From assembly GCA_034434235.1 (NCBI GenBank), contig DAOTZV010000190.1, positions 1 through 41,177 of the forward strand: a DNA stretch of 41,177 nucleotides, read 5' to 3'. The position numbers and the translations under genes were made by a program. Below, one piece after another: positions 52-41,177 of the stretch. This stretch comes from Anaerolineae bacterium (GTDB lineage: Bacteria > Chloroflexota > Anaerolineae > CG2-30-64-16). Below the pieces are notes generated by a model that did no database searches, was not told the origin of the DNA, and saw only the letters and a list, made by a program, of their open reading frames with translations. How positions within the stretch are numbered: position 1 is the first letter of the stretch; every line of letters starts with the position of its first letter.

Positions 52-2253
52 TTAACTCTTAAAGAAAAACGTCGGCGGAAGCGAGCTGCCGGGCGTGCGG
101 CAGTGCTGCGCGTTGATCTGCCGTTCGGGGATGTTGCCCATGTTGTTCTTCACCACGCGCACCCCCATGAACGCCGGCGACTGGCCGACCGTGCCGATGC
201 TCCACTGCTGCTCGACGATGATCTTCCACAGCTCCTTGCCGGTCTTGATCTGATCTTCTTCCTTCATCGTCGGCACCTTGGCCATCAGCTCAAAGGCCCG
301 CAACATCTCCGGGTCGTCGGGCTTTTCGCCTTGCGTGCCGCCCGAGGCGTACCACTTGGCGTAGGCCATGCCCATGTGGCATTCCACCGGGTCCACCGGC
401 AGCGCGTGCCGCGGGAAGAGGAAGAGCATCTCGGAGCCGTCGTTCGCCCAGGTGATGATCTGGTGCTCGTTGTTGGCCGTCTTGCCGAACGCCAGGTTGC
501 GCTCCAGCTCCTTCACGTCCACGTCAATGCCGATCTTCTTCCACTGCTGCTTGATCATCTCGCCCGCGGCCGTGTAGGGCACGAATTGCCCGCCCACCGT
601 GATCATCTCCAGGCGCAGGCGCTGGCCGTTGTCGGTGCGCAGGCGGAAGCCCTCGGCGTCCTTCTTGTCCAGGCCGATCCGATCCAGGATCTCGTTGGCC
701 TGCTTCGGGTCGTAGGTGCACCACTTCTTCCGGTACTCCGGGCCCGGGCTGTAGACCGTGCTCTCGGCCGGCGCGGTGGAGCCGGGGGTGCCCACGCCAA
801 GCCAGAACGTCTCGTTGAGCTGATCGCGATCGATGCCCAACGACAGCGCATGGCGAAAGTCCTTGTTCTTCAGCCACTTGGCGATCTCCGGATCGCCCTT
901 GTACGCGTTGCCGATGTGCAGCGTGATGTCCGAGCCGTTCAGGGCCGGGTCGAGATGAACGGTGTAGTTCCCCTTCTGCTGGTTCTCCAGCAACACCGGC
1001 AGGTTGGCCAGGCTCACATGGCGCTCCTGGATGTCGTATTCGCCCGCCACCGCGCGCAGGTTGAGCACCTGGAGGTTCTCGGCCAGCGTCATGGTGATCT
1101 TGTCAATGTACGGGAGCTGGTTGCCCTCGGTGTCCACGGCCCAGTAATACGGGTTGCGCTCCATGACCCACGTCGGCGTGTTGATCGGGCTGACGGTGCG
1201 CCAGGGGGTCATGACCGGCACATCCACGTTGAGCACCCAGCTATAGCGGTTCTTGAAGTACGCCTTCCAGTCGTCGAAGCCGGCGTCCTTGGCCTTCTTG
1301 TTGACCTCTTCGAGCGAGGAGTACTTGGGCAGGAACTGCTTCAGGTAGTGCTTCGGCGCGTAGCCGCCGCCGAAGGTGCCGAACGCGCCGCGGGTGGCAA
1401 ACCCGGCGCCGATGGCCGTGCTGCCGGCCAGGATGTAGGGGAAGAGATAGTTCGGCTCGGGGAACTCGAAGGCCACGGTGAAGTCGTCTATCTTCTTCAT
1501 CACGCCCGGCTTGCCGTTGACCATCATTTCGGGGAAGGGGGTGGGCACCAGGTCCTTGTTGGAATAGACATCCTCGAACCAGAACATGAAGTCGTCGGCA
1601 GTGAGGGGCGTGCCGTCCGACCACTTGGCGCCCTTGCGGAGCATCACCGTGGTCGTCTTGCCGTCTTCGCTGAGCTTCCAGTCTTTGCAGAGGGCCGGCG
1701 CGATGTTGTTGCCGGTGTAATCCCAGAAGAGGATCTTGTCGGTGGAGACGATGCGGTTGCCGTTTTCATGGTCGGCCGGGCCGGTGAAGCCGCGACGCCA
1801 GTTGCCGCCGTACTTGCCGATCTCGCGCAGCGGCTTGATGACCATGACGTCGGTGGGCTCGGGCAGGCGCTTTTCGACCGGCGGCAGCTTGCCGGCCTTG
1901 ACCAGCTCGGCAAGCATGGGCGCCTCGTTGAACTTCTTCGGGAACTTCGCCACGTCCCGGATGATCTCCGGGCCTTCCAGCTTGCCGATCAGCGATTCGC
2001 CCAGCTTGGGCGCGGCCGCTTTCGCGGCGGTCGGCGCGGCAGTGGGAGCGGCGGTGGGAGCCGGCGCCTTGGTGGCGGCGGGGGCCGCGGTGGGCGCGGC
2101 CGGCGCCGCGGTGGGTGCAGCCGGCGCGGCCGTGGGAGCGGCCGGGGCCGGCGCGGGCGTAGGTTGAGCACATGCGGCCAGGGTGGCCGTGCCGACAGCG
2201 GCGCCGGTGAGCGTGAGGAACTCTCGGCGGGTCAAGTGCTTGCGCTTGGACAT
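52..2253 (-). CDS. ABC transporter substrate-binding lipoprotein, family 5 (DppA/OppA peptide/oligopeptide/nickel type)
   Basis: Start MSKRKHLTRREFLTL has a twin-arginine-like signal and an LAAC lipobox. A long PTAAPAAP linker precedes a family-5 SBP body. AGGAGG RBS sits 6-8 nt before the ATG at 2253. The track ORF (to 2688) is extended only because it reads through the stop-free upstream repeat. Confidence 0.85.
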   Translation of the reverse strand: MSKRKHLTRREFLTLTGAAVGTATLAACAQPTPAPAPAAPTAAPAAPTAAPAAPTAAPAATKAPAPTAAPTAAPTAAKAAAPKLGESLIGKLEGPEIIRDVAKFPKKFNEAPMLAELVKAGKLPPVEKRLPEPTDVMVIKPLREIGKYGGNWRRGFTGPADHENGNRIVSTDKILFWDYTGNNIAPALCKDWKLSEDGKTTTVMLRKGAKWSDGTPLTADDFMFWFEDVYSNKDLVPTPFPEMMVNGKPGVMKKIDDFTVAFEFPEPNYLFPYILAGSTAIGAGFATRGAFGTFGGGYAPKHYLKQFLPKYSSLEEVNKKAKDAGFDDWKAYFKNRYSWVLNVDVPVMTPWRTVSPINTPTWVMERNPYYWAVDTEGNQLPYIDKITMTLAENLQVLNLRAVAGEYDIQERHVSLANLPVLLENQQKGNYTVHLDPALNGSDITLHIGNAYKGDPEIAKWLKNKDFRHALSLGIDRDQLNETFWLGVGTPGSTAPAESTVYSPGPEYRKKWCTYDPKQANEILDRIGLDKKDAEGFRLRTDNGQRLRLEMITVGGQFVPYTAAGEMIKQQWKKIGIDVDVKELERNLAFGKTANNEHQIITWANDGSEMLFLFPRHALPVDPVECHMGMAYAKWYASGGTQGEKPDDPEMLRAFELMAKVPTMKEEDQIKTGKELWKIIVEQQWSIGTVGQSPAFMGVRVVKNNMGNIPERQINAQHCRTPGSSLPPTFFFKS

Positions 2254-2293
2254 CTCAGCCTCCTTAGAATGGATACGAAATGGTACTCTCTCT

Positions 2294-2415
2294 GGGCGAC
2301 CAAGGTCGCGGCTAACGAGCCCCCCGCCGGACGTCGGCCTGCGCCGCCGCGACCGCACCCACGCAGGTGGGTGCCGCGGCGCAACCGCGCCCTCGCGTCG
2401 CGATTTCAATCGCCC
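2294..2415 (-). repeat. Solo copy (inverted orientation) of the ~120-bp mosaic MITE/BIME-like element that forms the arrays at 9361-10383 and 35124-35783
   Basis: The reverse complement reads GGGCGATTGAAATCGCG...GGGCGCGGTTGCGCCGCG...CACCCACCTGCGTGGGTG...GGCGCAGGCCGACG...TTAGCCGCGACCTTGGTCGCC, i.e. the same modules A-B-C-D-E as the arrays. It overlaps the 3' end of the IclR gene. Confidence 0.75.
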
Positions 2416-3218
2416 ACGACGTTGCCACGCCCACGATGGCACACAACCTGAGACAGCTCTGCGCCCAGGTTGACCGAAATGGTCCGGGCGGTCTCCTTGA
2501 CCAGTGCAGCAATCCGCGGAGCATCGGCCAGGGAGAGGCGCGACACCGGCGCAGACAAGCTGATGCTGGCAATCGGCTTGCCGGTGTAGTCGAAGATGGG
2601 AGCCGCCACGCACCGGCCACCCTCTTCGTTCTCTTCGTCGTCTACGGCATACCCCAGCTCGCGCGCTTCCGCCAACTGCCGAAGCCACACCTCTTCATCG
2701 GTGATCGTCTTCGCGGTCACGCGCGGCAACCCGAAGCGCCGAACAAAGGCGCGCGCCTCTGCCTCGGGCCAATGCGCCATGATCGCCTTGCCCAGCGCGG
2801 TGCTGTGCGCCAGGGCGCGCTTGCCGATCTCGGAGCGCATCCCCAAAGCACGAGGGCACAACAACCGCTCGATGTACACGATGTCGGCGCCATCCAGCAC
2901 GGCCAGGTTGACCGTCTCGCCGCACCGGTTGCGCAGCGCCTCCAGATGAGGATAGGCCACCCGCCGGATCTCCAGATGGTGGAGCACGACCGACGACCGC
3001 TCGACCAGCTTCAGCCCTAGGCTGTATTTGCGGGTTTGGGGGTTCTGTGTCAGGTAGCCCTTGGCGGCCAGCGTATGGATCAATCCCGCGGCCGTGCTCT
3101 TATGGAGGCCCACAGCTTCGGCGATCTCGGTCGTGCCCAGTTCGGCCGTGCGCAAGTCGAACAGATTTAAGATATCGAGCGCGCGCTCGACCGAACCGAT
3201 CAGTTTGGGAGGCTGCAT
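2406..3218 (-). CDS. IclR family transcriptional regulator
   Basis: An N-terminal HTH (SVERALDILNLF...LGTTEIAEAVGLHKSTAAGLIHTL) precedes an IclR effector domain. Start MQPPKLIG at 3218. The last codons and stop lie inside the repeat copy. Confidence 0.85.
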   Translation of the reverse strand: MQPPKLIGSVERALDILNLFDLRTAELGTTEIAEAVGLHKSTAAGLIHTLAAKGYLTQNPQTRKYSLGLKLVERSSVVLHHLEIRRVAYPHLEALRNRCGETVNLAVLDGADIVYIERLLCPRALGMRSEIGKRALAHSTALGKAIMAHWPEAEARAFVRRFGLPRVTAKTITDEEVWLRQLAEARELGYAVDDEENEEGGRCVAAPIFDYTGKPIASISLSAPVSRLSLADAPRIAALVKETARTISVNLGAELSQVVCHRGRGNVVGD

Positions 3219-3266
3219 CGTCGCACAGATACCTTTCCTGGAGGGGAAAACGAAAAGCAATGCGAC

Positions 3267-3288
3267 AATATCGTACAACGAACGATAT
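3267..3288. promoter_or_regulatory. AT-rich inverted repeat AATATCGT-N7-ACGATAT in the divergent IclR / DUF2891 promoter region; candidate IclR operator
   Basis: Inverted repeat read directly in a locally AT-rich intergenic region between divergent genes. Confidence 0.3.
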
Positions 3289-3459
3289 GATAGCACAATC
3301 TGGCCGCCTGTCAAGAAACTGGAGGCTGGAAACGAATTGGTATTAGGCGCTGTGCAATGAATGAGGTATACTTACCGGAAAATCGCGCGCGGACGCGCCG
3401 GGCACCCTCCCAGGTGCCTGGCACGTGAAACTCAAAACTGACCACTGACCACACGCTTT

Positions 3460-9313: not shown

Positions 9314-9358
9314 CGCACGAACGCCGGGGGCGCCAGCACCCCCGGCGTTCGTGTTTAA
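9314..9358 (+). terminator. comEA terminator hairpin (CGCACGAACGCCGGGGG-loop-CCCCCGGCGTTCGTG followed by TTTAAG)
   Basis: Perfect ~15-bp stem 80 nt after the comEA stop; the T-tract is short. Confidence 0.5.
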
Positions 9359-9360
9359 GC

Positions 9361-10383
9361 GGCGTGCACGCGTCGGCGCAGGCCGACGCCGCGTGGGGGG
9401 CGATTGAAATCGCGGCTAAGGGGCGCGGTGGCGCCGCGATGCCCACCTCCGTGGGCGTGCACCGTCGGCGCAGGCCGACGCCCAGCGGCGGGGCGATTGA
9501 AATCGCGGCTAATGGGCGCGGTGGCGCCGCGACACCCACCTCCGTGGGCGCGCACGCGTCGGCGCAGGCGGTCGCCGCGTGGTGGGGCGATTGAAATCGC
9601 GGCTAACGGGCGCGGTGGCGCCGCGGCACCCACCTGCGTGGGTGCGGTCGCGTCGGCGCAGGCCGACGCCGCGTGGTGGGGCGATTGAAATCGCGGCTAA
9701 GGGGCGCGCCGGCGCCGCGACACCCACCTGCGTGGGTGCGGTCGCGTCGGCGCAGGCGGTCGCCGCGTGGGGGGGCGATTGAAATCGCGGCTAACGGGCG
9801 CGGTGGCGCCGCGGCACCCACCTGCGTGGGTGCGGTCGCGTCGGCGCAGGCCGACGCCCAGCCGCAGGCTCCTTAGCCGCGACCTCGGTCGCCCAGGACA
9901 TTAACGGGCGCGCCGGCGCCGCAACGCCCACCGCCGTAGGCACCGCCGCGTCGGCGCAGGCCGACGCCGCGTGGTGGGGCGATTGAAATCGCGGCTAATG
10001 GGCGCGGTGGCGCCGCGACACCCACCTGCGTGGGTGCGGTCGCGTCGGCGCAGGCCAACGCCCAGCCGCAGGCTCCTTAGCCGCGACCTCGGTCGCCCCC
10101 AAGCGGCGGGGCGATTGAAATCGCGGCTAATGGGCGCGGTGGCGCCGCGACACCCACCGCCGTGGGCGCGCACGCGTCGGCGCCGCGACACCCACCGCCG
10201 TGGGCGCGCACGCGTCGGCGCAGGCCGACGCCCAGCCGCCGGCTCCTTAGCTGCGACCTCGGTCGCCCAGGACATTAACGGGCGCGCCGGCGCCGCGACA
10301 CCCACCGCCGTGGGCGTGCACGCGTCGGCGCAGGCCGACGCCCAGCGGCAGGCTCCTTAGCCGCGACCTCGGTCGCCCAGGAC
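9361..10383. repeat. Tandem array (~10-11 units, period ~94-125 bp) of a mosaic hairpin-rich MITE/BIME-like repeat
   Basis: Module A GGGGCGATTGAAATCGCGGCTAA occurs 7 times. It is interleaved with module B GGGCGCGGTGGCGCCGCG, module C CACCCACCTGCGTGGGTGCG, module D CGTCGGCGCAGGCCGACGCC and the optional module E CAGGCTCCTTAGCCGCGACCTCGGTCGCCC. Each module is an imperfect palindrome. The segments between modules are homologous variants of one another, not unique spacers. Confidence 0.85.
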
Positions 10384-10401: not shown

Positions 10402-10430
10402 TTGACAGGACGGCGATTGCCGGATAACAT
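10402..10430 (+). promoter_or_regulatory. Sigma70-like promoter TTGACA-17-TAACAT upstream of trxA
   Basis: -35 TTGACA at 10402-10407, 17-nt spacer, TAACAT at 10425-10430, ~38 nt before the trxA ATG. Confidence 0.5.
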
Positions 10431-10877: not shown

Positions 10878-11224
10878 AAATCGAATACCGCCACTGAAAA
10901 GCTGTGAACTGGACTAGTAGGCGTTCGTCAAGGGCCCCAGAGAGCCGACCGTTGAGCTGCGAGGTCGGCGCCGCTGCGGACGTTGAATGGACCAGGGAGC
11001 TGCAGGCCGAAAGGTTCGCCGAGTAGGCCGCGCCGGAGACGTCACCGTTATCACGACCGAGGGGATCGGATCTGTCCTGCGCAGCGTTGCGCGGGCCATG
11101 CGCCAGTGCAATGGCGGCCTGTCCCTGCTAATGAGTGAGGCCGTTGCGCAACGGCCTAATCGGGGTGGCACCGCGGGTGGTTTACAAGCCCTCGTCCCCT
11201 TTTCGGGGCGAGGGCTTTTGATTT
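10878..11224 (+). promoter_or_regulatory. T-box riboswitch leader (probable Trp specificity) with intrinsic terminator
   Basis: T-box consensus AAUCGGGGUGGCACCGCGGGUGG at 11158-11183. An AGAGAG motif lies near the 5' end. A candidate specifier GAAUGGA (UGG + A) is present. Terminator AAGCCCTCGTCCCC-TTTTC-GGGGCGAGGGCTTTTGATTT at 11187-11224 overlaps the T-box 3' arm. Leader is ~430 nt from promoter to ATG. Confidence 0.6.
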
Positions 11225-21082: not shown

Positions 21083-21110
21083 TTGCCGGAATAATTTATT
21101 AATCTACAAT
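21083..21110 (+). promoter_or_regulatory. AT-rich promoter-like TTGCCG-16-TACAAT immediately upstream of the 56-bp tandem repeat
   Basis: Read directly in a sharply AT-rich patch (GGAATAATTTATTAATCTACAAT). Confidence 0.35.
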
Positions 21111-21230
21111 AGCTCGCATCCCACGGACGAGCTGAAGCTCGCCCTACTTCGCGTACTGCGAGCTTTAGCTCGCATCCCACGGACGAGCTGAAGCTCGCCC
21201 TACTTCGCGTACTGCGAGCTTTAGCTCGCA
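21111..21230. repeat. Perfect tandem duplication of a 56-bp hairpin-containing unit (2 full copies + 8-bp partial third)
   Basis: Units at 21111-21166 and 21167-21222 are identical: AGCTCGCATCCCACGGACGAGCTGAAGCTCGCCCTACTTCGCGTACTGCGAGCTTT. Each has terminal inverted arms AGCTCGCA/TGCGAGCT and ends in TTT. Confidence 0.9.
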
Positions 21231-21335
21231 ACCGACGGTAGGAAATTATAGTGCAAAAGGTCGCTGCCAACAACCTGCCGACCCCAGCTTCCAGGGTCCC
21301 ATCCCATTTGCATGGCCGGCCGATGATCGGCTACA

Positions 21336-32339: not shown

Positions 32340-34691
32340 ATGGCAGAAGCTACGCAGACCGCGGTGGCCGACCGCCTGGCTCAACTGAAGGCGGTCTTTC
32401 CCCATTGGGAGAAAACCAAAGACCTGGTCGACAACCTGCTCGACATCATGCTGAACTACCGGCAGAGCGGACATCCGGGCGGCTCGCGCTCGAAGGTGCA
32501 CGCGCTGCTCACGCTGCTGCTCAGCGGCGCGATGCGCTGGGACATCCGCGCGCCGGAAAAGCGCTTCGCCGATCGCTTCGTGCTGGTGGCCGGGCATACC
32601 GTCCCGTTGATCTACTGCACGATGGCCGTGCTCGACGAAGCGCTGCGCATCAAGTACGAGCAAACCGGCGATGAAAAATATCGCCTGCGCCCCGAACGGG
32701 CCGTCTTCTGGGAAGACCTGCTGGGCTTTCGGCGCTGGCGCGGCCTTCCCGGCCATGCCGAGATGGCCGGCAAAACCCTCTTCCTGAAGTTCAACACCGG
32801 GCCGTCGGGCCACGGCAGTCCGGCCGCGGCCGGCGAGGCGCTGGCGCTCAAGCGCGCCGGCGCGGGCTGCGTCAAGGTGTTCGCGCTGGAAGGGGAAGGC
32901 GGCCTCAGCGCGGGCGCGGCGCATGAGACCATGAACTCGGCCTGGGGCCTGGGACTCGACAACCTGCACTACTTGCTGGACTGGAACGATTTCGGCATCG
33001 ACGCGCATCCGGTCAGCGCGGTGACCTACGGCACGCCGACCGACTGGTTCGGCAGCCACGGGTGGCGCGTCTACGGCGTCGAGCAGGGGAGCGAGTGGGA
33101 GCCGCTGGCGCAGGCGCTCCTCAGCATGACGACCGAGCAAGACCCGCAGAAGCGCCCCTCGGTGATGTGGTTCAAGACGCGCAAGGGCCGCGGGTACGGC
33201 AAGTACGACTATGCCTCGCACGGCGTGCCGCACCCGCTCAACAGCGAGGCGTTCTGGGCCACCAAGCGCGAGTTCGCCGAGCGCTACGGCGTCGAATTCG
33301 TCAACATGGGCGGCCCCGCGCCGGCCGATCCGGAAGCCCTGCGCGCCGAGTTTCGCGCCAACCTGGAGGCGGTGATCGGCGTCCTGCGCCGCGATCAGGC
33401 GCTGGTGGATTACCTGGCCGACACGCTGGTGGCCATCGGCGATTCGGTGCCGGCCGAGCTGCCGACCTTCCGGCTGGGCAAGAAGGGCAACCCCTTCAAA
33501 GACCCCCGTCTGTTCGACTATCGCAACTATCCGGCCGAGCTCTATCTGCCGCCGGGCAAATCGGCCGCCAACCGCAACGCGCTGGCGAAGTGGAGCGCGT
33601 GGATCAACGCGTTCGGCGCGCGGGAGTATGGCCGGCCGATCTTCATCGCCTCATCGGCCGATCTGGCCGGCTCGACTAACATCAGCGGCTTTGCGGAGGC
33701 GTTCGGCGATTTCAAAGGCTACGGCTGGTACGAGCGGGTCGGCAACGATGAAGGCGCGCTCCTGCCGCAGGAGATCACCGAGTTCACCAACTCCGGCATC
33801 ATGGCCGGCATCGCGACCGTCAACCTGGCCGCCGATCCCGAACGGGAGTTCGACGGCTTTTGGGCCGCCAGCTCGACCTACGGCTCCTTCGCGTATCTCC
33901 TGTACGGCCCGATGCGGCTCTTCAGCCAGCTCAGCCAGGACTGCGACCTGAAGGTGGGCAAGGCGCTGTGGGTGGCGGGCCACTCTGGCCCCGAGACGGC
34001 CGAGGATAGCCGAACGCACTTCGGCATCTTCGCGCCGGGGGTCACCCAGCTCTTCCCCGAAGGGCAGATCATCAACCTGCACCCGTGGGAGTACAACGAG
34101 GTGCCGGTGTTGCTGGGTGCGGCGCTGGCCACCGATGCGCCGATCATCGCGCTGCACCTGACCCGGCCGCCGATCACCATTCCCGATCGCGCGAAGCTGG
34201 GCATCCCGTCGCACTTCGAGGCCGCACGCGGGGCCTACATCATCCGCGACTACAAGCCCGGCCGACCGTGCGACGGGACGTTCATCGTCCAGGGCACCAG
34301 CGCGGTGAACAACATCGTGCAGCTGTTGCCGCAACTGGACGAGTCCGATCTGAACATCAAGATCGTCTGTGCGACGAGCCATGAGCTCTTCGCCATGCAG
34401 CCGGCTCCGTATCGCGAGCGGGTCATCGGCCCGGCCGACCGGGTGAATTCGACCGTGATCTGCACGCAGGCGCGGATCACCATGCGCCAGTGGATCTTCA
34501 ACAAGATGGCCGAGGAATACGCCATGACGGCCGACTGGGACAACCGCTGGCGCACGGGCGGCACGGTAGACGAGGTCATCGAAGAGGCGCACCTTTCGCC
34601 CAGATGGCTGATGGAGGGGATCCGGCGCTTCGTGGCCGACAAAGAGAAGCGGATGGCGGCCATTCGCGCAGAAGTGGATGCCGCATGTTGA
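32340..34691 (+). CDS. Transketolase-family TPP enzyme, atypical long form (783 aa)
   Basis: TPP motifs SGHPGGS and GEGGLSAG (GDG-like) plus TK-like pyrimidine-binding and C-terminal domains. The ATG is 2 nt after the upstream stop. Confidence 0.8.
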   Translation: MAEATQTAVADRLAQLKAVFPHWEKTKDLVDNLLDIMLNYRQSGHPGGSRSKVHALLTLLLSGAMRWDIRAPEKRFADRFVLVAGHTVPLIYCTMAVLDEALRIKYEQTGDEKYRLRPERAVFWEDLLGFRRWRGLPGHAEMAGKTLFLKFNTGPSGHGSPAAAGEALALKRAGAGCVKVFALEGEGGLSAGAAHETMNSAWGLGLDNLHYLLDWNDFGIDAHPVSAVTYGTPTDWFGSHGWRVYGVEQGSEWEPLAQALLSMTTEQDPQKRPSVMWFKTRKGRGYGKYDYASHGVPHPLNSEAFWATKREFAERYGVEFVNMGGPAPADPEALRAEFRANLEAVIGVLRRDQALVDYLADTLVAIGDSVPAELPTFRLGKKGNPFKDPRLFDYRNYPAELYLPPGKSAANRNALAKWSAWINAFGAREYGRPIFIASSADLAGSTNISGFAEAFGDFKGYGWYERVGNDEGALLPQEITEFTNSGIMAGIATVNLAADPEREFDGFWAASSTYGSFAYLLYGPMRLFSQLSQDCDLKVGKALWVAGHSGPETAEDSRTHFGIFAPGVTQLFPEGQIINLHPWEYNEVPVLLGAALATDAPIIALHLTRPPITIPDRAKLGIPSHFEAARGAYIIRDYKPGRPCDGTFIVQGTSAVNNIVQLLPQLDESDLNIKIVCATSHELFAMQPAPYRERVIGPADRVNSTVICTQARITMRQWIFNKMAEEYAMTADWDNRWRTGGTVDEVIEEAHLSPRWLMEGIRRFVADKEKRMAAIRAEVDAAC

Positions 34692-35134
34692 GCCGGACGC
34701 TGTCCGAGAGGGAATGGCCGAAGGAGCCGGGGTCATATGTGCTGCTGCTCCAGGTCGTGTCCCCGCTGACGTTTGAAGCCGGCCGACTGGGCATGATCAC
34801 CCTGCCCGCCGGCCGGTATGCTTACGTCGGCACCGCGCGGGCGACCGGCGGACTGCGCGTCCGGCTGGCGCGCCATGTGCGTTCGCAGAAGCGGCTCTAC
34901 TGGCACATAGATTACCTGGTCCAACGGGCGCCGATCTGGGGCGTTTACTGGCAAGTGACGCCGATTCCCCTGGAGTGTCGGTGGGCACAGGCGCTTCTGC
35001 GCCTCCCCGGCGCCAGCGCGCCTGTGCGCGGCTTCGGCAGCAGCGACTGTCGTCGCGGCTGTCCGGCCCACCTGGTGCGCCTGCCCGATGGCATATCGGC
35101 CGAGGAGGTGGAGGAGGCGCTTGGGGGCGATTGA
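34685..35134 (+). CDS. DUF123-like (GIY-YIG-fold) hypothetical protein
   Basis: 150 aa, HIDYL motif. The ATG overlaps the transketolase stop. Its stop codon (TGA) is supplied by the first repeat module (GGGGCGATTGA). Confidence 0.5.
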   Translation: MLSRTLSEREWPKEPGSYVLLLQVVSPLTFEAGRLGMITLPAGRYAYVGTARATGGLRVRLARHVRSQKRLYWHIDYLVQRAPIWGVYWQVTPIPLECRWAQALLRLPGASAPVRGFGSSDCRRGCPAHLVRLPDGISAEEVEEALGGD

Positions 35135-35783
35135 AATCGCGGCTAACGGGCGCCGCAGCGCCGCGGCACCCACCTGCGTGGGTGCACGCGTCGGCGCAAG
35201 GCCGACGCCCAGCCGCAGGCTCCTTAGCCGCGACCTCGGTCGCCCCAAAAGCACCGAGCGGCGCAGTAGCGCCGCAATCCAAAACGACCTCGGCGCAGGC
35301 CGACGCCCAGCCCAGGTTTGGGGCGATTGAAATCGCGGCTAACGGGCGCCGCCGCGCCGCCACACCCACCGCCGTGGGTGCACGCGTCGGCGCAGGCCGA
35401 CGCCCAGGTTCGGGGCGATTGAAATCGCGGCTAACGGGCGCCCTGGCGCCGCTGCACCCACCTCCGTGGGTGCACGCGTCGGCGCAAGGCCGACGCCCAG
35501 GTTCGGGGCGATTGAAATCGCGGCTAACGGGCGCCACGGCGCCGATGCACCCACCGCCGTGGGTGCCCGCGTCGGCGCAGGCCGACGCCCAGCCGCCGGC
35601 TCCTTAGCCGCGACCTCGGTCGCCCCACCGTTCAATCGCCCCACCATTCGGTCGCTCGCCGCCGCACCCACCTTCGTGGGTGCGGGCCGCGTCGGCGCAG
35701 GCCGACGCCCGGCCGCCGGCCCCTTAGCCGCGACCTCGGTCGCCCACAGGGCCCGCCGGGCCGCGGGTTGGGGCGATTGAAAT
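35124..35783. repeat. Second tandem array (~6 units) of the mosaic MITE/BIME-like repeat, truncated at its right end by the IS
   Basis: Module A GGGGCGATTGAAATCGCGGCTAA at 35124, 35326, 35409 and 35504, with a partial copy at 35771. E modules TTAGCCGCGACCTCGGTCGCCC at 35223, 35603 and 35723. Confidence 0.85.
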
Positions 35784-37461
35784 GGGTGCAGTTGCTCTCT
35801 TTTACCAGGTTCATTCGTGAGTATGTAGAGTTCGTCAGACAAGTCCATAAGAGGGTAGCGGTGCTGGCGTCGTGCATTTCAGGGAGAGATTTTTGTGCTC
35901 ACGTTGGGCCTGCTCTTTGGTTCTCTCATGAACGAATTCGATAAACGCATCCCAGTCGTCGTTCACTTCAATACAGCGCAGTTGCAACAGGTGTTCCGCG
36001 CGTTCCCTGATCCAACGCATGCCTCCGCAGTCAAAGCGCTTGGCGATCACGTAATTCACCGCGCCCTCAACGACTCCCGAAGAGATCTCCAAATCACGTT
36101 CGCGCAGTTGCTTGTAGTTCATCTTATCTACACGCTTGGCAATGTAGTTGCGCACTTGCGCCAAACGTGCGCGGGCACCGGACTTGGCCGGGCCCAACTG
36201 CGCAAGACGTTTGTCCATCTCCGCCACGATCTCCGCCACACGTCCAGCGTACAGGGCTTCTTTCTGGGCCGCCACCCACTGGCGCAACTCGGGACTGCCT
36301 TCCCGATACAGGCATTCACCGGCCTCCCACAGATACTCTGTCACGTGGTAGACGTCAATGGTATGCTCTGCTTTCGGGAAGTATTCGGCGATGTAGCGCT
36401 CCAGGTCGTTGTCGCCATCGGTCACCACCTGGATCAGCTTGTGACTCTCTGGCCCGAAGCCGCGCTTGGTGGCCTCACGGCGGGCGATCGCGACGGCGTG
36501 CCGCTTGGGCGCATAAGAAGCATACACTTTCTTGTTGATCGGCCCCTCCAACTGCCCCTCGGCACTCTGTTTCAGCGTATACATCGTTACTATGGTGGCC
36601 ATTTTCCCGTTCTTGGCCTTGTCGCCCTTCTGGCGCCGCGGCTTGGCCTCGCGGCATTGACGGGCCGCCCGGCCCCGATGCCGTGGCGAGCCAGGCTGGG
36701 GCTGCGCCAGGCGTTGGCCGCGCCGCTTCGCCAACTCCGCCTCCGTAGCGGTCGGGGTGGCCTTGCTATCGATCTGCACAATCAGCACTTCTCCATCCCC
36801 TTCCGGCGCCGGCGCGCTCTCGAACCACGCCCCGGTATGCTGACCCAGTCCCAATACCATGCCCTCAATACTCTCCTGAGCAGGCGACCAATGCAAGAAC
36901 ATGCTCAAGAGCAGGGCGGTCTGCGCATAACTGACCTTGGTCGCCAGCCGAGCCGCATAGCTGCGCAGCACCATGCTGAACCCGTCGTCGGTCAACCCCA
37001 ACTCGACATCCAAGGGATAATAGCCCTTACCCTTGCTGTAGAGGTAAGTGCGCCAATAGCGCACCTTGCCGAAGAACGTCCCCAGCAAGCGCGAATGGGG
37101 GCCAAGTTGCTTATACCCCGCCTCTGCCTCGGTGTGCGCCGCCTGGAATCGTTCGTGGCGCATACACAGGAAAAGCTGGACGAACAGACAACCCAGGGCC
37201 AGAACCCTGGGAATCAGTTGGGTCTCAAAGGCAAAAAAGGTGAGCGCTTGACCACGCAAGACCCAGGTGACCAGTTCTCCCACTTCTTGCTCAATTCTGG
37301 CTTTCACCTCTGCCGTCGTGAGAGGAGTAGCTGCATCGCTCTCCGTCAACACGCTGGACGAACATTTCTCCTCCATAAGGCCTCCTCAAGTACGCTTTTG
37401 AGGCCTATTATGCCATACTTTGTGACCCGGCGATGTGAGGTAAAAAAGAGCGATTACACCC
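35784..37461 (-). mobile_element. Insertion sequence (~1.68 kb) with 23-bp imperfect terminal inverted repeats GGGTGCAGTTGCTCTCTTTTACC / GGGTGTAATCGCTCTTTTTTACC and a single transposase gene
   Basis: The IRs were found by reverse-complementing the right flank. The left end abuts a half module A (GGGGCGATTGAAAT|GGGTGCAG). No direct target duplication is visible. Lower GC than the surrounding core. Confidence 0.75.
35835..37376 (-). CDS. DDE-type IS transposase (513 aa; ISKra4/IS1634-size class, family uncertain)
   Basis: A Lys/Arg-rich linker, a DDE-like arrangement (QIDSK ... VVTDGDNDLERY ... HVTEYLW) and a C-terminal MRWIRERAEHLLQLR motif typical of transposases. Confidence 0.75.
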   Translation of the reverse strand: MEEKCSSSVLTESDAATPLTTAEVKARIEQEVGELVTWVLRGQALTFFAFETQLIPRVLALGCLFVQLFLCMRHERFQAAHTEAEAGYKQLGPHSRLLGTFFGKVRYWRTYLYSKGKGYYPLDVELGLTDDGFSMVLRSYAARLATKVSYAQTALLLSMFLHWSPAQESIEGMVLGLGQHTGAWFESAPAPEGDGEVLIVQIDSKATPTATEAELAKRRGQRLAQPQPGSPRHRGRAARQCREAKPRRQKGDKAKNGKMATIVTMYTLKQSAEGQLEGPINKKVYASYAPKRHAVAIARREATKRGFGPESHKLIQVVTDGDNDLERYIAEYFPKAEHTIDVYHVTEYLWEAGECLYREGSPELRQWVAAQKEALYAGRVAEIVAEMDKRLAQLGPAKSGARARLAQVRNYIAKRVDKMNYKQLRERDLEISSGVVEGAVNYVIAKRFDCGGMRWIRERAEHLLQLRCIEVNDDWDAFIEFVHERTKEQAQREHKNLSLKCTTPAPLPSYGLV

Positions 37462-38813
37462 ATATCAACCAGGACTACTTCCACACCCCAACGCTCCTGC
37501 TGCAAGAACCGATTCATGCGCCCCCAAACAGTCTGCCGAATGATCTTACGTGGCAGAAACTGTCGTTGTGCGAAATCGTAATCGAACATCGCATCCAGAT
37601 CTCTCTCTGCTACTACATCGCGAAGAACATGACCGGCCATCGCTTCGACGCTCGCTTGCCAATTATCAACATTGTAAACCGCGTCAACGATGTCCTCATC
37701 GGCAACAGCAAAATAATCCTTCTGAGATGCTGGCGGCGGTTTTGCGCCGCCAGCGCCCTGCATGGCCATATCAATCAGATCAGGTGAGCCTACAGTCGCA
37801 TCGGCCTCAGACGTCTTATTCTCGGTCGGTGCAGACGCGGCATTCGGCTTGGGCGTCTGAGATGGTATGCCCCCAGACGGCTTCGACTTGTCGGCTACAG
37901 CCAGTGACCAAAGAAAACTTGCCAACCCGGCAAGCACTCGTCGCCACGGTGAAAGGTTTGATGGAAGAGATTGCGGCGGGAACGGCGGCTGAGTAGTATC
38001 TTGAGAAGGTTTCTCGGTTGCGGGAGCGGCTTTGGAACCCGTGTCTTTCTTCCGTCTAATCTGATACCAAAGCCGGAGTTCAATATCAAGAGGAACTCCG
38101 TCACGAGTATAGACCTTGCTTACTTGTAAGGTCTTCTGCTGCCTTCGCAAATCAACGATGGCCCGTGGGCTTTCATAGAGCTCCAGGAATCGGGCTCCGC
38201 CCTTGACCACCCTTGTATATTTCCCACCACATTCCAAGACGGCGGCATAACCATAGTTGACAAAAATCAACCCCGGGCCGCCGACTTTTTGCAAAAACCC
38301 TCCCGGACCTCCTTCTCGAGTGGTTTGCGATTGACCGCCTCCGACGACCATCACGGGATAATTCAACCCAAAGTAAAGGCTCTTCAGGAACTTTAACGCC
38401 TCTTTGCGATCAAGATCGGGGCTCAGAGCAGTTACCCAGTGCAATCGGGCTCGACCGTAAATCTCGGTGAGGGCAAGAACAGGAACGATGCCACAGGGCA
38501 CCGCCATGGCGAAAGAGAAGAAAAGACGAGTTACAGGATCGGGGATGAACTCGGGAAGCAGCCAGTCCAGCAGGTAGCTGACGATCAGGATGATGAAACC
38601 AGCAGGGAGCACGCCCCGGTAGACAAATTTGCGATAGCGCTTATACGGCTTGCCATAAGCCAACACCAAGAACACCAGAAAGGCAGCAACAGCTGCAGCC
38701 CATACCCCCCACTTTATCAGTGCAACAAGGATCAATACCAGCCCCGCGCCTGCTGCGATCTTCCAGCGCTGTGAACGGCCCTCTGCCTTCCGCTCGCCCG
38801 TCTTTTCGGCCAT
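37386..38813 (-). CDS. Membrane protein: 4 TM helices + SPFH/band-7 domain split by a ~90-aa low-complexity insert; C-terminus replaced by IS sequence
   Basis: SPFH motifs GPGLIFVNYGY...YTRDGVPLDIELRLWYQI and ...QASVEAMAGHVLRDVVAERDLDAMF align to the SPFH protein at 7731. The last ~25 codons (37386-37461) lie inside the IS right end. GGAGGTGG RBS. Confidence 0.7.
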   Translation of the reverse strand: MAEKTGERKAEGRSQRWKIAAGAGLVLILVALIKWGVWAAAVAAFLVFLVLAYGKPYKRYRKFVYRGVLPAGFIILIVSYLLDWLLPEFIPDPVTRLFFSFAMAVPCGIVPVLALTEIYGRARLHWVTALSPDLDRKEALKFLKSLYFGLNYPVMVVGGGQSQTTREGGPGGFLQKVGGPGLIFVNYGYAAVLECGGKYTRVVKGGARFLELYESPRAIVDLRRQQKTLQVSKVYTRDGVPLDIELRLWYQIRRKKDTGSKAAPATEKPSQDTTQPPFPPQSLPSNLSPWRRVLAGLASFLWSLAVADKSKPSGGIPSQTPKPNAASAPTENKTSEADATVGSPDLIDMAMQGAGGAKPPPASQKDYFAVADEDIVDAVYNVDNWQASVEAMAGHVLRDVVAERDLDAMFDYDFAQRQFLPRKIIRQTVWGRMNRFLQQERWGVEVVLVDMGVIALFYLTSPGHKVWHNRPQKRT

Positions 38814-38916
38814 TTCGATTCCACCTCCATCAGCTCAATGCGCCAGACCGCGATATGGGGCCGTCTCGACTATCCTTGCTTCCAAGCAGAAGCAGAAAAG
38901 AGTAATTCTCCGAACT

Positions 38917-40458
38917 TCAGGCCAATAGCCCCGCCAGCTTCATCAGTCTGAGACCCTCCAACCGCAGCACCTTGGGAATGATGGCCCTGTAAATGTCACA
39001 ATACGGCGATCTGGTATCATAACGCCCCGTTGCACGATAGGTGACCAGCGGACAACCGCCTGCGCACCAATACTTCCAGGCGCAGTCGCGGCAACCCTCC
39101 TTTGCATCTACGCTGAGGTTTTGCAGGCCCACCCGATCCCGTTGGGCATCGCGCAGCGGATCGTCGCTGGATACGTCCGTAACGGGCCGGTCAATCATCA
39201 TGTGGCACTTGGCGACTCCCCCGTGCGGATCAAAAACCAGGTAGGATTCGCCGACGCCGCAGGTCCGTTCGTGGGGACGATCCATCACACAACGATCTAG
39301 CAGCGCACCGAGCGGACTGTCCACGGGCAATTTCGCTTCCATGACGGCCAACGCCTGTTCCAGCGCGCCGACAACCAGATCTGTCGCCAGACCGAGATCG
39401 TCTGCCCGTGCATGGCTGTTGTCTCGAAACAGATTAAAGTTGAAGGACAATTCCCGATCGAGCAGATAACCCACCAGCGCAGGCAAGCCCCGCGCGCTGC
39501 GTCCGGTCACTGTGATGCTGATGAACGGCTTGAGACTGCACGCCGCCAATCGGTCGAGGGTTTGGTTGACCTCGGCAAAGGACCCTCGCCCATCCGCGCG
39601 CCTCCGCTGTCCATCGTGATCGAGACCGAGCCCATCGAGAGAGACCATGATGCGGATGCCTCGCGACGCGAGTTCTGCCACGGCAGCGTCATCCAGCATC
39701 GTTCCGTTGGTCAGAATGATCGAATCGAGCTCCAGCCCGGCCGAACTCGCGGCGCGAGAAGCATACCCGTGAAGAGCGTAGACCAGATCCAACCTGAGCG
39801 ACGGTTCTCCGCCCGCGAACTTGATCTTGATGCGCTGGAAGCCGCCGCGCACCGCCGACCGGATGAGCGCGTCGATCGCGGCGCGCCCCGCGCTCTCGCT
39901 CATGAAGTCGCCAGATCTGGCAAGATAGCAGTAGTCGCACCGGAGATTACATGCATTCGTGAGATGTAGCCATGCGCCGAGCACGCGGGGAGTTGTGGCC
40001 CGCAACCGGGGCGAAGATGACTCTCCCGCCGGCTCCAAGAGGCCATGCGCCGCCATTTGGGCGACAAGGTTCGCCAGGTTCCGATCGGCGTAGGACGATT
40101 CATCGGGGAACAACTCCGCCCCAGGCGTGCGATGCCGTTCCCATACCTGCCGCGCCGCGGCGTTCAGCACGGCTACCCCCGGAACAGCGCGCGGGTTCGC
40201 CATCAATGTATGGCCCGACGGCAGCGGCTGCGTGAACACATCCGCACATCGCAGAGACGCCCGCAGAGAATCCACACGTTCCGTCGGGATGAGGCCGGCT
40301 TCGGCGCAGGCACAATCACACTGCTCGGCCAGGAACATCCGTCCCTTATGCTGAAGCGTCAAGGTGGAAAGCAAAACAGGCACGATCTCCGGCATCAAAC
40401 CTCTCCCCAGGATATCATCATACCAGGCCAATGATGGACCGACGATTTCTGAAAGCAA
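38917..40458 (-). CDS. Radical SAM / SPASM-domain protein (peptide-maturase-like) with a ~150-aa N-terminal extension
   Basis: CxxxCxxC motif CNLRCDYCY at ~aa 160. C-terminal SPASM-like cysteines CGVGESY...CRDCAWKYWCAGGCP...YCDIY. Lower GC (~55%). Confidence 0.85.
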   Translation of the reverse strand: MLSEIVGPSLAWYDDILGRGLMPEIVPVLLSTLTLQHKGRMFLAEQCDCACAEAGLIPTERVDSLRASLRCADVFTQPLPSGHTLMANPRAVPGVAVLNAAARQVWERHRTPGAELFPDESSYADRNLANLVAQMAAHGLLEPAGESSSPRLRATTPRVLGAWLHLTNACNLRCDYCYLARSGDFMSESAGRAAIDALIRSAVRGGFQRIKIKFAGGEPSLRLDLVYALHGYASRAASSAGLELDSIILTNGTMLDDAAVAELASRGIRIMVSLDGLGLDHDGQRRRADGRGSFAEVNQTLDRLAACSLKPFISITVTGRSARGLPALVGYLLDRELSFNFNLFRDNSHARADDLGLATDLVVGALEQALAVMEAKLPVDSPLGALLDRCVMDRPHERTCGVGESYLVFDPHGGVAKCHMMIDRPVTDVSSDDPLRDAQRDRVGLQNLSVDAKEGCRDCAWKYWCAGGCPLVTYRATGRYDTRSPYCDIYRAIIPKVLRLEGLRLMKLAGLLA

Positions 40459-41177
40459 CCACGAAATCGGGATGCGCCTCAGCGATCGTCCTGTCCTGGC
40501 GCAACATCTTGTCGGTTTCGAGTTTTTCGATGAACAGGTCGCACCATCTTCTCGCCAAGTCAGGCCCCGAGATCTTGGAAAGCTTGGTGATGTTGTCGAG
40601 CAAATGGCCGATGTGCTGTCTGTAACGCGCTGAGCCGTAGCCCGGGTCAGATGCCAGCCCCGCGTATCCCGTCAGATAGTGTCGCAGCGATTCATCGAAG
40701 TCGCGCAATACGAAATAATAGGCGCCCAGCTCGATCTCCAGCAGATTCTCGAACACACCGAACTGAAAGATCAGCGGTCTGCCGTTGCCCGATTGCTTCT
40801 TGCGCTTCTCCTCCAGAGCAGAACGCAATCGCTCAATGAGGCCGCGCTCTCGCTCCAGAAGATGCGGATCCGAACATCCGTCAGGGAACCGTGCGCTTGC
40901 CATATCATCGGCCAGGAAGGCGATCTCGGTCAAGTTTTCAAGCTCCTCCAGCATGTCATGGCACTCGATCGCAAAAGCCAGCCCCTCCTCGAAGTGCGCA
41001 AGGGCCTGCTCCAACAGTTGAAGGCGCTTTCCGCGATCGTTGGTCCGCAATGCCTGGTCATGATACAGGCGTCCCCGACGGCGGTGTGCAGTGGAGCTGA
41101 TCTGAACCAGCCCATATTGCCGACACAGATCCAGGCTACGATCCATGTCTTGTCTGGCGCGCTTTTCGCGCTTCTTG
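40418..41177 (-). CDS. Helical (TPR-like?) hypothetical protein, 5' end beyond window; 41-nt overlap with the rSAM gene start
   Basis: The reading frame stays open to the window edge (KKREKRARQDMDRSL...). The overlap implies translational coupling with the rSAM gene. Confidence 0.5.
   Translation of the reverse strand, partial: KKREKRARQDMDRSLDLCRQYGLVQISSTAHRRRGRLYHDQALRTNDRGKRLQLLEQALAHFEEGLAFAIECHDMLEELENLTEIAFLADDMASARFPDGCSDPHLLERERGLIERLRSALEEKRKKQSGNGRPLIFQFGVFENLLEIELGAYYFVLRDFDESLRHYLTGYAGLASDPGYGSARYRQHIGHLLDNITKLSKISGPDLARRWCDLFIEKLETDKMLRQDRTIAEAHPDFVVAFRNRRSIIGLV

Follow-up and report, generated by a model that had tools for sequence, protein, structure and literature searches.

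A dispersed family of hairpin-ended modular repeats in an Anaerolineae bacterium and its association, in relatives, with IS200-like Y1 transposase genes

The window analyzed here, by which we mean the whole 41,177-nt stretch of contig DAOTZV010000190.1 from an Anaerolineae bacterium, carries two tandem arrays and one solitary copy of a short repeat assembled from hairpin-forming modules, designated A to E. Array 1 (9361-10383, + strand) holds about 10 head-to-tail units, as read from the sequence, and its neighbors are a ComEA-like gene with a terminator-like hairpin (9320-9356) and a promoter-like site for thioredoxin (10402-10430). Array 2 (35124-35783, + strand) holds about 6-7 units and is located between a DUF123 gene (34490-35134, + strand) and an insertion resembling an insertion sequence (IS), while the solitary copy (2294-2416, - strand) sits between an IclR gene (2406-3314, - strand) and an SBP_bac_5 gene (52 to ~2253, - strand). 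The results described below show that these repeats form a real family that is dispersed across phyla, that its end hairpins covary, that it is consistently associated with one clade of Y1 transposase genes, and that its arrays turn over rapidly.

The repeat arrays and the wider family

When the window was searched for the individual modules with up to 3 mismatches permitted, using dinucleotide-preserving shuffles as the background, module A (GGGCGATTGAAATCGCGGCTAA) gave 11 matches, module E (TTAGCCGCGACCTCGGTCGCCC) 8 and module D (CGTCGGCGCAGGCCGACGCC) 15. All of them fell within 2294-2416, 9361-10383 and 35124-35783, compared with a shuffle expectation of 0.00-0.08 matches. Tandem Repeats Finder returned periods of 94 bp (ABCD), 110 bp (x-BCDE) and 188/204 bp for array 1 and of 92 bp for array 2. 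An initial annotation of this DNA, made from the sequence alone, had described a family of hairpin modules in two arrays plus an inverted solitary copy, and the mismatch search places the family where that annotation had put it. Three types of unit can be read in the sequence: ABCD (94 bp), which is closed by a short linker, GCGTGGT; ABCDE (123 bp); and x-BCDE (110 bp), in which AGGACATTAAC stands in place of A. Array 1 opens with a partial CD unit, continues with four ABCD units starting at 9397, 9490, 9584 and 9678, and then reaches an ABCDE unit at 9772-9894 that serves as our full-length reference of 123 bp (A, 9772-9794; B, 9796-9813; C, 9815-9833; D, 9839-9858; E, 9869-9894). It is followed by x-BCD (9895-9975), ABCDE (9976-10098), an AB-C-C-DE unit with a 38-bp internal duplication (10108-10268) and x-BCDE (10269-10378). 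Array 2, also on the + strand, consists of ABCDE (35124-35245), a degenerate unit (35246-35319), two ABCD units (35320-35411 and 35412-35504), ABCDE (35505-35625), a degenerate CDE unit (35626-35745) and a truncated A module (35770-35783) that is cut at 35783. The solitary copy is a full-length ABCDE unit whose A module is degenerate beyond its hairpin.

Modules A and E are inverted partners at 18 of 22 positions, in agreement with the terminal inverted repeat (TIR) of about 22 bp that had been proposed for the unit ends. The four mismatches between them (ATT..AAT versus ACC..GGT) compensate for one another inside the end hairpin, such that the pairing of each end is kept. Every module folds as a hairpin, as had been anticipated. 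With DNA folding parameters, C (-9.7 kcal/mol, z -2.9) and D (-11.3 kcal/mol, z -3.6) are the strong ones, and A, B and E are weaker. In the fold of the full unit, A pairs with E to form a stem that encloses hairpins B, C and D, with z-scores of -4.3 for RNA and -4.0 for DNA. The 123-bp units thus have the short non-coding body and TIRs of a MITE (miniature inverted-repeat transposable element), and the B, C and D hairpins, at 18-25 nt, have the character of the 20-40-nt extragenic, multi-copy imperfect palindromes known as repetitive extragenic palindromic (REP) sequences.

The family extends well beyond the window. Scanning one genome for each species, we found the exact 20-nt core of A at 49 loci; a match in Tateyamaria was set aside as a chance match within a coding region, leaving 48 genuine loci in other genomes. 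The hosts include an Anaerolineales metagenome-assembled genome (MAG; 24 loci), other Chloroflexota including Ktedonobacterales and Thermomicrobiales, Armatimonadota/Capsulimonas, six cyanobacterial lineages, Longimicrobium and one Methylobacter contig end. The great majority of the 48 loci follow a single plan, in which A is succeeded by 1-3 GC-rich hairpins and an inverted end module within ~100-200 nt; the exceptions (L031, L041 and copies cut by contig ends) have a partial element or no partner. The inner stems vary by lineage (GTCCAC/GTGGAC, GTCGGC/GCCGAC or GTCCGC/GCGGAC). One and the same A is joined, in the Anaerolineales MAG, either to E (TTAGCCGCGACCTCGGTCGCC, identical to that of the window) or to an alternative end (CCCCGAATTCATTCGGCGG), itself an A-like hairpin with a covarying stem, which bears out the mosaic character initially ascribed to the modules. 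Closer to home, a protein-database search with a translated array open reading frame (ORF) had a single match, which led to a fourth array on another contig (L082). This contig carries at least 5 window-type ABCD units beside a flank not present in the window, and it comes from Joint Genome Institute sample 3300005839, in which the thioredoxin contig of this strain is also present. Copies are therefore present at four unlinked loci of this population, and the family is dispersed rather than confined to the three loci of the window.

Several other searches were negative. The viral contigs scanned for the A 20-mer contained 0 matches, and a literature search by raw sequence (A, E and the cyanobacterial hairpins) yielded only chance matches of the primer type. 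No Rfam family matches the repeats: over the whole window at gathering scores Rfam reported only an unrelated T-box, and over array 1 at permissive E-values only sub-threshold noise. An RNA-structure screen of cyanobacteria (PMC12873609) does not mention them.

The pairing of the end hairpin is constrained. In a hand-assembled alignment of 25 end modules, covering both ends of many loci, 98.7% of the cells are paired and 5 of the 6 pairs have changed on both sides. This covariation was matched by 0 of 500 shuffles, and slid registers were only 27-45% paired. A covariance model built from this alignment had 20 hits in the window (E ≤ 0.012), all of them in the three repeat loci, and identified 180 end modules in the 447 kb of fetched loci. 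The 73 distinct sequences among the latter, which the model selected and which are hence biased toward structure, show 99.8% of cells paired and 47 double changes. The inner hairpins of 34 distinct elements have stems that are mostly GTCNNC and tetraloops of either CTNC (29) or GNAG (23). Because these two tetraloops are complementary, C, with CTNC, and D, with GNAG, act as an inverted hairpin doublet resembling a REPIN. In the window's own population, C shows paired changes between GCAC..GTGC and ACGC..GCGT.

A few elements contain inserts within their loops. In two loci (L020 and L046) an insert of 25-30 nt interrupts the GTCCA..TGGAC hairpin of an otherwise normal element, in another (L007) a further palindrome lies inside a hairpin loop, and in two more (L066 and L068) the insert is in the loop of an end module. 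The first three loci come from the A-module genome scan and the last two from the metagenome pattern scan described below. Each of these cases looks like a nested insertion that spared the host hairpin.

Y1 transposase genes, array turnover and gene context

The connection to a transposase emerged at one of the genome-scan loci (L038), where A and a hairpin lie ~200 nt upstream of a 147-aa ORF. The encoded protein scores 85.6 bits against Pfam Y1_Tnp (PF01797), the Y1 HUH transposase family of IS200/IS605 elements. In NCBIfam it scores 74.7 bits for IS200 (cut-off 55) and 28.9 bits for REP_Tyr_transpos (cut-off 80), and thus falls short of the class 2 REP-associated tyrosine transposases (RAYTs) whose genes are flanked by repeats in known REP systems. 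The closest solved structures are the ISDra2 and IS608 TnpA proteins (E ~1e-5), with no REP-associated transposase among the PDB hits. Annotated homologues come from cyanobacteria, Chloroflexi, Anaerolineae and Armatimonadetes, the same phyla in which the A module is found. An exhaustive protein search gave 74 representative clusters at E ≤ 1e-30, and most partner proteins were seen on 1-6 contigs each. Many relatives of the Y1 transposase (P0130, P0133, P0134, P0136 and others) are proteins of 270-315 aa with two tandem Y1 domains.

The partner proteins are 137-155 aa long and carry the motifs DHVH, KWQG and YIxxQxxHH, as read in 30 sequences. In the classification of TnpA_Y1 proteins by Quentin, Siguier, Chandler and Fichant (2018, PMC6006769), subclass 1.2 comprises low-copy proteins of ~148 aa with the motifs DH[IV]H, WQ and Y---Q--HH. 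Judged by length, low copy number and motifs, the partner proteins match subclass 1.2. A literature search for later work on this subclass found nothing new.

Ten loci were chosen by protein homology alone (L056, L057, L060, L075, L076, L078, L079, L081, L083 and L089, with L091 as a further copy of the same protein). An A-type end module is present at most ~150 nt upstream of tnpA in all ten, and an inverted partner module lies downstream in nine. In Acaryochloris thomasi (L078) and in L081, GCGATTGAAATCGCGGCTA and a hairpin precede tnpA, and a hairpin and the inverse of GCGATTGAAATCGCGGCTA follow it, the TIR of L081 being perfect over ~31 nt. Together with L060 and L057, these two loci have the layout [end module-hairpin]-tnpA-[hairpin-inverted end module], and so provide the coding element sharing its ends with gene-less copies that is expected of a MITE. 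Modules of the window itself recur beside these genes: the core of D (GTCGGCGCAGGCCGAC) is directly against the stop codon of tnpA in L060 and, in L056, ~20 nt beyond that codon, and the stem of E (GCGACCGAGGTCGC) flanks tnpA in L083. Several tnpA ORFs end ...PGD* inside an A module (GGC GAY TGA), much as the IclR and DUF123 genes of the window run into theirs.

When metagenomes were searched for A followed, after 81-141 nt, by codons for WxTWDR, 13 loci were recovered, and their GC contents are 0.44-0.65. All 13 ORFs continue beyond WxTWDR as members of this Y1 clade (those of L064, L068 and L073 are truncated or frameshifted), and partner modules lie downstream in at least 10. Tandem arrays of half or whole units accompany the Y1 gene in L062, L065, L069 and L071. 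Across 23 loci from at least three phyla, the Y1 gene is the only gene that we found enclosed by the modules. The initial annotation had pointed to a possible RAYT elsewhere in the genome; what the relatives contain is an IS200-like Y1 gene flanked by the end modules, below the RAYT cut-off and absent from the window. A tblastn search of the first 55 loci with the Y1 protein matched only L038 itself. One of the metagenome contigs, the 10-kb L062 (Ga0272446_1008016, GC 0.64), is exceptionally dense in the repeat family, with ~20 end-module hits around the Y1 gene and 2-3 kb from it. Its module subtypes are unlike those of the window, and its name resembles that of L051 (Ga0272448), the contig with the thioredoxin of the window.

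The arrays change quickly. Contigs sharing 99.4-99.7% identity with the window immediately downstream of array 1 differ in the number and kind of their units, and most assemblies break in or near this array. L051 (1-215), for example, is 99.7% identical to the window from 10173 onward and has only two x-BCDE units. Its left flank has no match anywhere in the window, reflecting either recombination at the array or a chimeric assembly at the repeat. Pieces of flank are duplicated inside the arrays (AGGAC and ATTAAC ahead of x-BCDE units), as is the 38-bp internal segment noted above, which points to tandem amplification by recombination or slippage, not repeated insertion, as their origin.

The repeats also intrude into genes. 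The first A module of array 2 supplies, in its loop, the TGA at which the DUF123 ORF stops (35132-35134, + strand), and the A loop of the solitary copy does the same for the IclR ORF (2406-2408, - strand); both are read GGC GAT TGA. On the other side of the solitary copy, an ORF at 52-2688 (- strand) passes through the repeat upstream of the likely SBP start at ~2253. The donated stop codons and the artefactual extension of the SBP ORF were both part of the initial annotation, and both are confirmed. In a survey of 47 genome loci with a crude gene caller, 26 elements had a gene 3' end inside them or within 30 nt of their own end. Both flanking genes could be assigned for 35 elements, of which 26 lie between co-directional genes, 5 between convergent and 4 between divergent ones; among the co-directional cases the element has the same orientation as the genes in 14 and the opposite in 12. 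The elements therefore favor gene ends and have no preference with respect to the direction of transcription.

The IS-like insertion next to array 2 (35784-37461) directly abuts the truncated last A module. It holds a 513-aa ORF (35835-37376, - strand) with weak matches to DDE_Tnp_ISL3 (27.4 bits) and UPF0236. By eye its ends are imperfectly inverted (left, GGGTGCAGTTGCTCTCTTTTACC; right, GGTAAAAAAGAGCGATTACACCC), and an inverted-repeat search with default seeds found no ends. No target duplication is visible at this insertion, and the remainder of the A module does not resume beyond it, which implies that a deletion or rearrangement accompanied the event. For the earlier suggestion that the arrays are hotspots for IS targeting, this truncation is a single anecdote.

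Interpretation and relation to known systems

With a probability of roughly two in three, we favor the interpretation that the repeats are non-autonomous, hairpin-ended elements of the REPIN or MITE type that belong to a Y1 transposase and have been amplified into fast-changing arrays. A unit consists of a 22-bp TIR formed by A and E, each arm of which is itself a small hairpin, enclosing the GC-rich modules B, C and D. By analogy with the TnpA proteins of IS608 and ISDra2 and with REP-associated transposases, the Y1 transposase would recognize the hairpins in single-stranded DNA and would cut and rejoin at the ends, and it may move or copy gene-less units in trans. Arrays would arise afterwards, by unequal recombination or slippage between units; such secondary amplification fits because bits of flank were duplicated along with the units and because the arrays change quickly between strains. 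Insertions would then be tolerated and persist at sites of low cost, typically the 3' ends of genes, for which the loop of A can supply a stop codon, and any effect on the mRNA would be secondary.

Several observations weigh against this interpretation. At the solitary copies inspected by eye we saw no target-site duplication or flanking direct repeat, and their left flanks showed no conserved target sequence. Although the ends have the covarying hairpins of an IS200/IS605 element, they are TIRs, whereas canonical IS200/IS605 ends are not inverted repeats and their elements insert 3' of a fixed tetra- or pentanucleotide. Subclass 1.2 is reported to be without IS-like ends, with the table entry 'REP: no' (PMC6006769). 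Some copies of D in the arrays have broken stems (the GCGGTC variant). A tblastn search with the Y1 protein finds no Y1 gene in the 41-kb window, such that the link between the arrays and a transposase comes from relatives and not from the window's own genome. Finally, the upstream A in the 13 metagenome loci is present by construction of the search pattern, and the proximity of elements to tnpA could reflect elements inserting near each other.

Alternatively, the repeats may be RNA elements that the host has selected and kept in 3' untranslated regions to stabilize or terminate transcripts, in which case the transposase link would be incidental or historical. The abundance of copies between co-directional genes and at gene 3' ends is in keeping with such a role, as are the stability and covariation of the hairpins and the location of all three window loci after a co-directional gene. 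We nevertheless consider it unlikely to be the main explanation. No T-run follows the hairpins of array 1, which contains 0 terminator-like sites and is in any case already preceded by a terminator-like hairpin, there is no orientation preference relative to transcription (14 versus 12) and no matching Rfam family, and the variation of array content between near-identical strains is ill-suited to a tuned function. An RNA role would be compatible with the transposase interpretation as a secondary addition to it. Less probable still is that the repeats are ordinary MITEs of a DDE-type IS, for instance an IS630- or ISL3-like one that shares their TIRs, with the Y1 gene just a frequent neighbor. 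Long TIRs are indeed typical of DDE elements and atypical of IS200/IS605, and a DDE-type transposase gene adjoins array 2, but the ends of that IS-like neighbor are unrelated to the repeats, target-site duplications were not seen, the only gene found enclosed by the modules, in the 23 loci, is Y1, and the TIRs of L078 and L081 bracket the Y1 gene alone.

We give almost no weight to the possibility that the arrays are a purely local minisatellite or duplication, or are of the CRISPR type. The head-to-tail periodicity of 92-110 bp and a weak Rfam match of module C to CRISPR-DR28 (22 bits, well under the gathering score of 35) are what could be cited in its favor. A local origin is ruled out by the four unlinked loci of the population and the 48 loci in other phyla. 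The CRISPR-like alternative, which had been raised at the outset, fails because every segment between modules is itself repeated, without unique spacers; no cas family appeared among the Pfam hits of the array-flanking ORFs tested. An integron attC array, in which RYYYAAC/GTTRRRY core sites would bracket gene cassettes near an intI gene, was also considered and rejected: the base after GGCTAA varies (C, G or T), and no ORF cassettes lie between the units.

Set beside described systems, the family has the appearance of a foldback MITE and the workings of a REP/REPIN-RAYT or 'TIRtron' system. With the 'REPtrons' formed by REPs, bacterial interspersed mosaic elements (BIMEs) or REPINs and their RAYTs (PMC3733652, PMC3116915), it has in common short palindromes that are GC-rich, extragenic and present in many copies and that mostly follow genes, as well as inverted hairpin doublets, tandem clusters that take in pieces of flank, and a Y1 HUH gene of low copy number with repeats on either side. 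It differs in having an extra pair of hairpin-forming TIR end modules and in lacking the unpaired GT[AG]G/CGTC tag at the hairpin's foot: where GTAG and CTAC do occur, in cyanobacterial copies, they form loops, and the CGTC with which D starts in the window is base-paired and is replaced by GGTC or AGTC elsewhere. In BIMEs, REPs alternate regularly in orientation; here C and D behave as an inverted doublet, but whole units are arranged head-to-tail. The partner protein is IS200-like and without the YIxxNP motif. Thus, of the REP/BIME, Correia or ERIC-type architecture originally proposed, the dispersed, array-forming MITE/REP-like character stands, and strict REP/BIME membership does not, given the missing tag, the head-to-tail order and the score below the RAYT cut-off. 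The GTAG-23 REPs of Thermomicrobium roseum/Roseiflexus are described as blocks that cluster within a Chloroflexi genome (Di Nocera et al. 2013, PMC3733652).

The 'TIRtrons' of the same authors combine Y1 genes, called TIRYTs, with long TIRs, some of them self-complementary, which also occur as moderately abundant repeat families in dimers or clusters (PMC3733652). Many of those TIRs share GGGGWSAS, whereas the ends described here begin (G)GGCGATTG, and the protein here is class 1-like, whereas described TIRYTs are class 2, mostly subclass 2.1 with helix-turn-helix tails (PMC6006769). The IS200/IS605 elements IS608 and ISDra2 resemble the family in their structures, which are the closest known to the partner protein, in the hairpins at both ends, in the absence of target duplication and in having a single small tnpA. 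Canonical elements of that group, however, are multi-copy and lack mutually inverted ends, while here a low-copy gene with TIRs of 22 to ~31 nt is accompanied by many gene-less units.

BOX elements have the architecture boxA-(boxB)n-boxC. Together with Correia, ERIC and RUP elements (PMC3184786), they are ~100-160 bp long, have terminal complementarity that gives a long foldback, are modular with repeated internal boxes, and are intergenic but sometimes fused to the ends of ORFs. In all of these respects they resemble the repeats of the window, to which they have no sequence relation. Each is limited to one genus or family, whereas the present family keeps an identical 20-nt end across phyla and has an identifiable Y1 partner.

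What is new here is a candidate link between the repeats and subclass 1.2 Y1 transposases, a group listed as REP-less. The partner proteins share with that subclass their size and motifs, their occurrence on few contigs and their frequency in Cyanobacteria. The differences are that all of the genes examined here are flanked by hairpin/TIR modules also found as gene-less copies, and that the clade extends to Chloroflexota and Armatimonadota. One possibility, for which we see the chances as evenly balanced, is that the A/E end modules, together with the doublets of inner hairpins, are the cognate DNA that subclass 1.2 has been missing. They would then constitute a previously unrecognized REPIN-RAYT-like partnership, in which one low-copy tnpA serves many gene-less units, and that Cyanobacteria, Chloroflexota, Armatimonadota and Gemmatimonadota would share, probably through horizontal transfer, with a 20-nt end identical across phyla and a tendency to form fast-changing tandem arrays. 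REP-type palindromes and tyrosine transposases have long been studied and their mechanism is unsettled, and subclass 1.2 was described in 2018 as a group of IS200 relatives having neither IS ends nor REPs. If the modules are its substrate, its substrate and role become testable. The arrays have practical consequences as well, in that they break metagenome assemblies and create spurious or extended ORFs in high-GC genomes, and their variation between near-identical strains could make them useful as strain markers for Chloroflexota of hot springs and mats.

Other features of the window

The T-box leader reported by Rfam (RF00230, 101 bits, E 2.5e-21) is located at 10895-11202 (+ strand), just downstream of thioredoxin and upstream of a gene for a pyridoxal phosphate-dependent (PALP) enzyme. 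Two further sets of tandem repeats are present. At 21110-21238 there are 2.3 copies of an unrelated 56-bp repeat (TAGCTCGCATCCCACGGACGAGCTGAAGCTCGCCCTACTTCGCGTACTGCGAGCTT) at 97% identity, with an overlapping 31-bp periodicity, and at 2024-2150, just within the 5' end of the SBP_bac_5 gene (- strand), there are GC-rich short tandem repeats with periods of 12, 21 and 39 bp that probably encode a low-complexity N-terminal linker. The last part of the window (37000-41177), which holds a second ORF with a Band_7/SPFH domain (37386-38813, - strand) and a radical SAM ORF (38917-40458, - strand), has a GC content of 0.54-0.62 compared with ~0.65 elsewhere in the window, and it may have been acquired recently.

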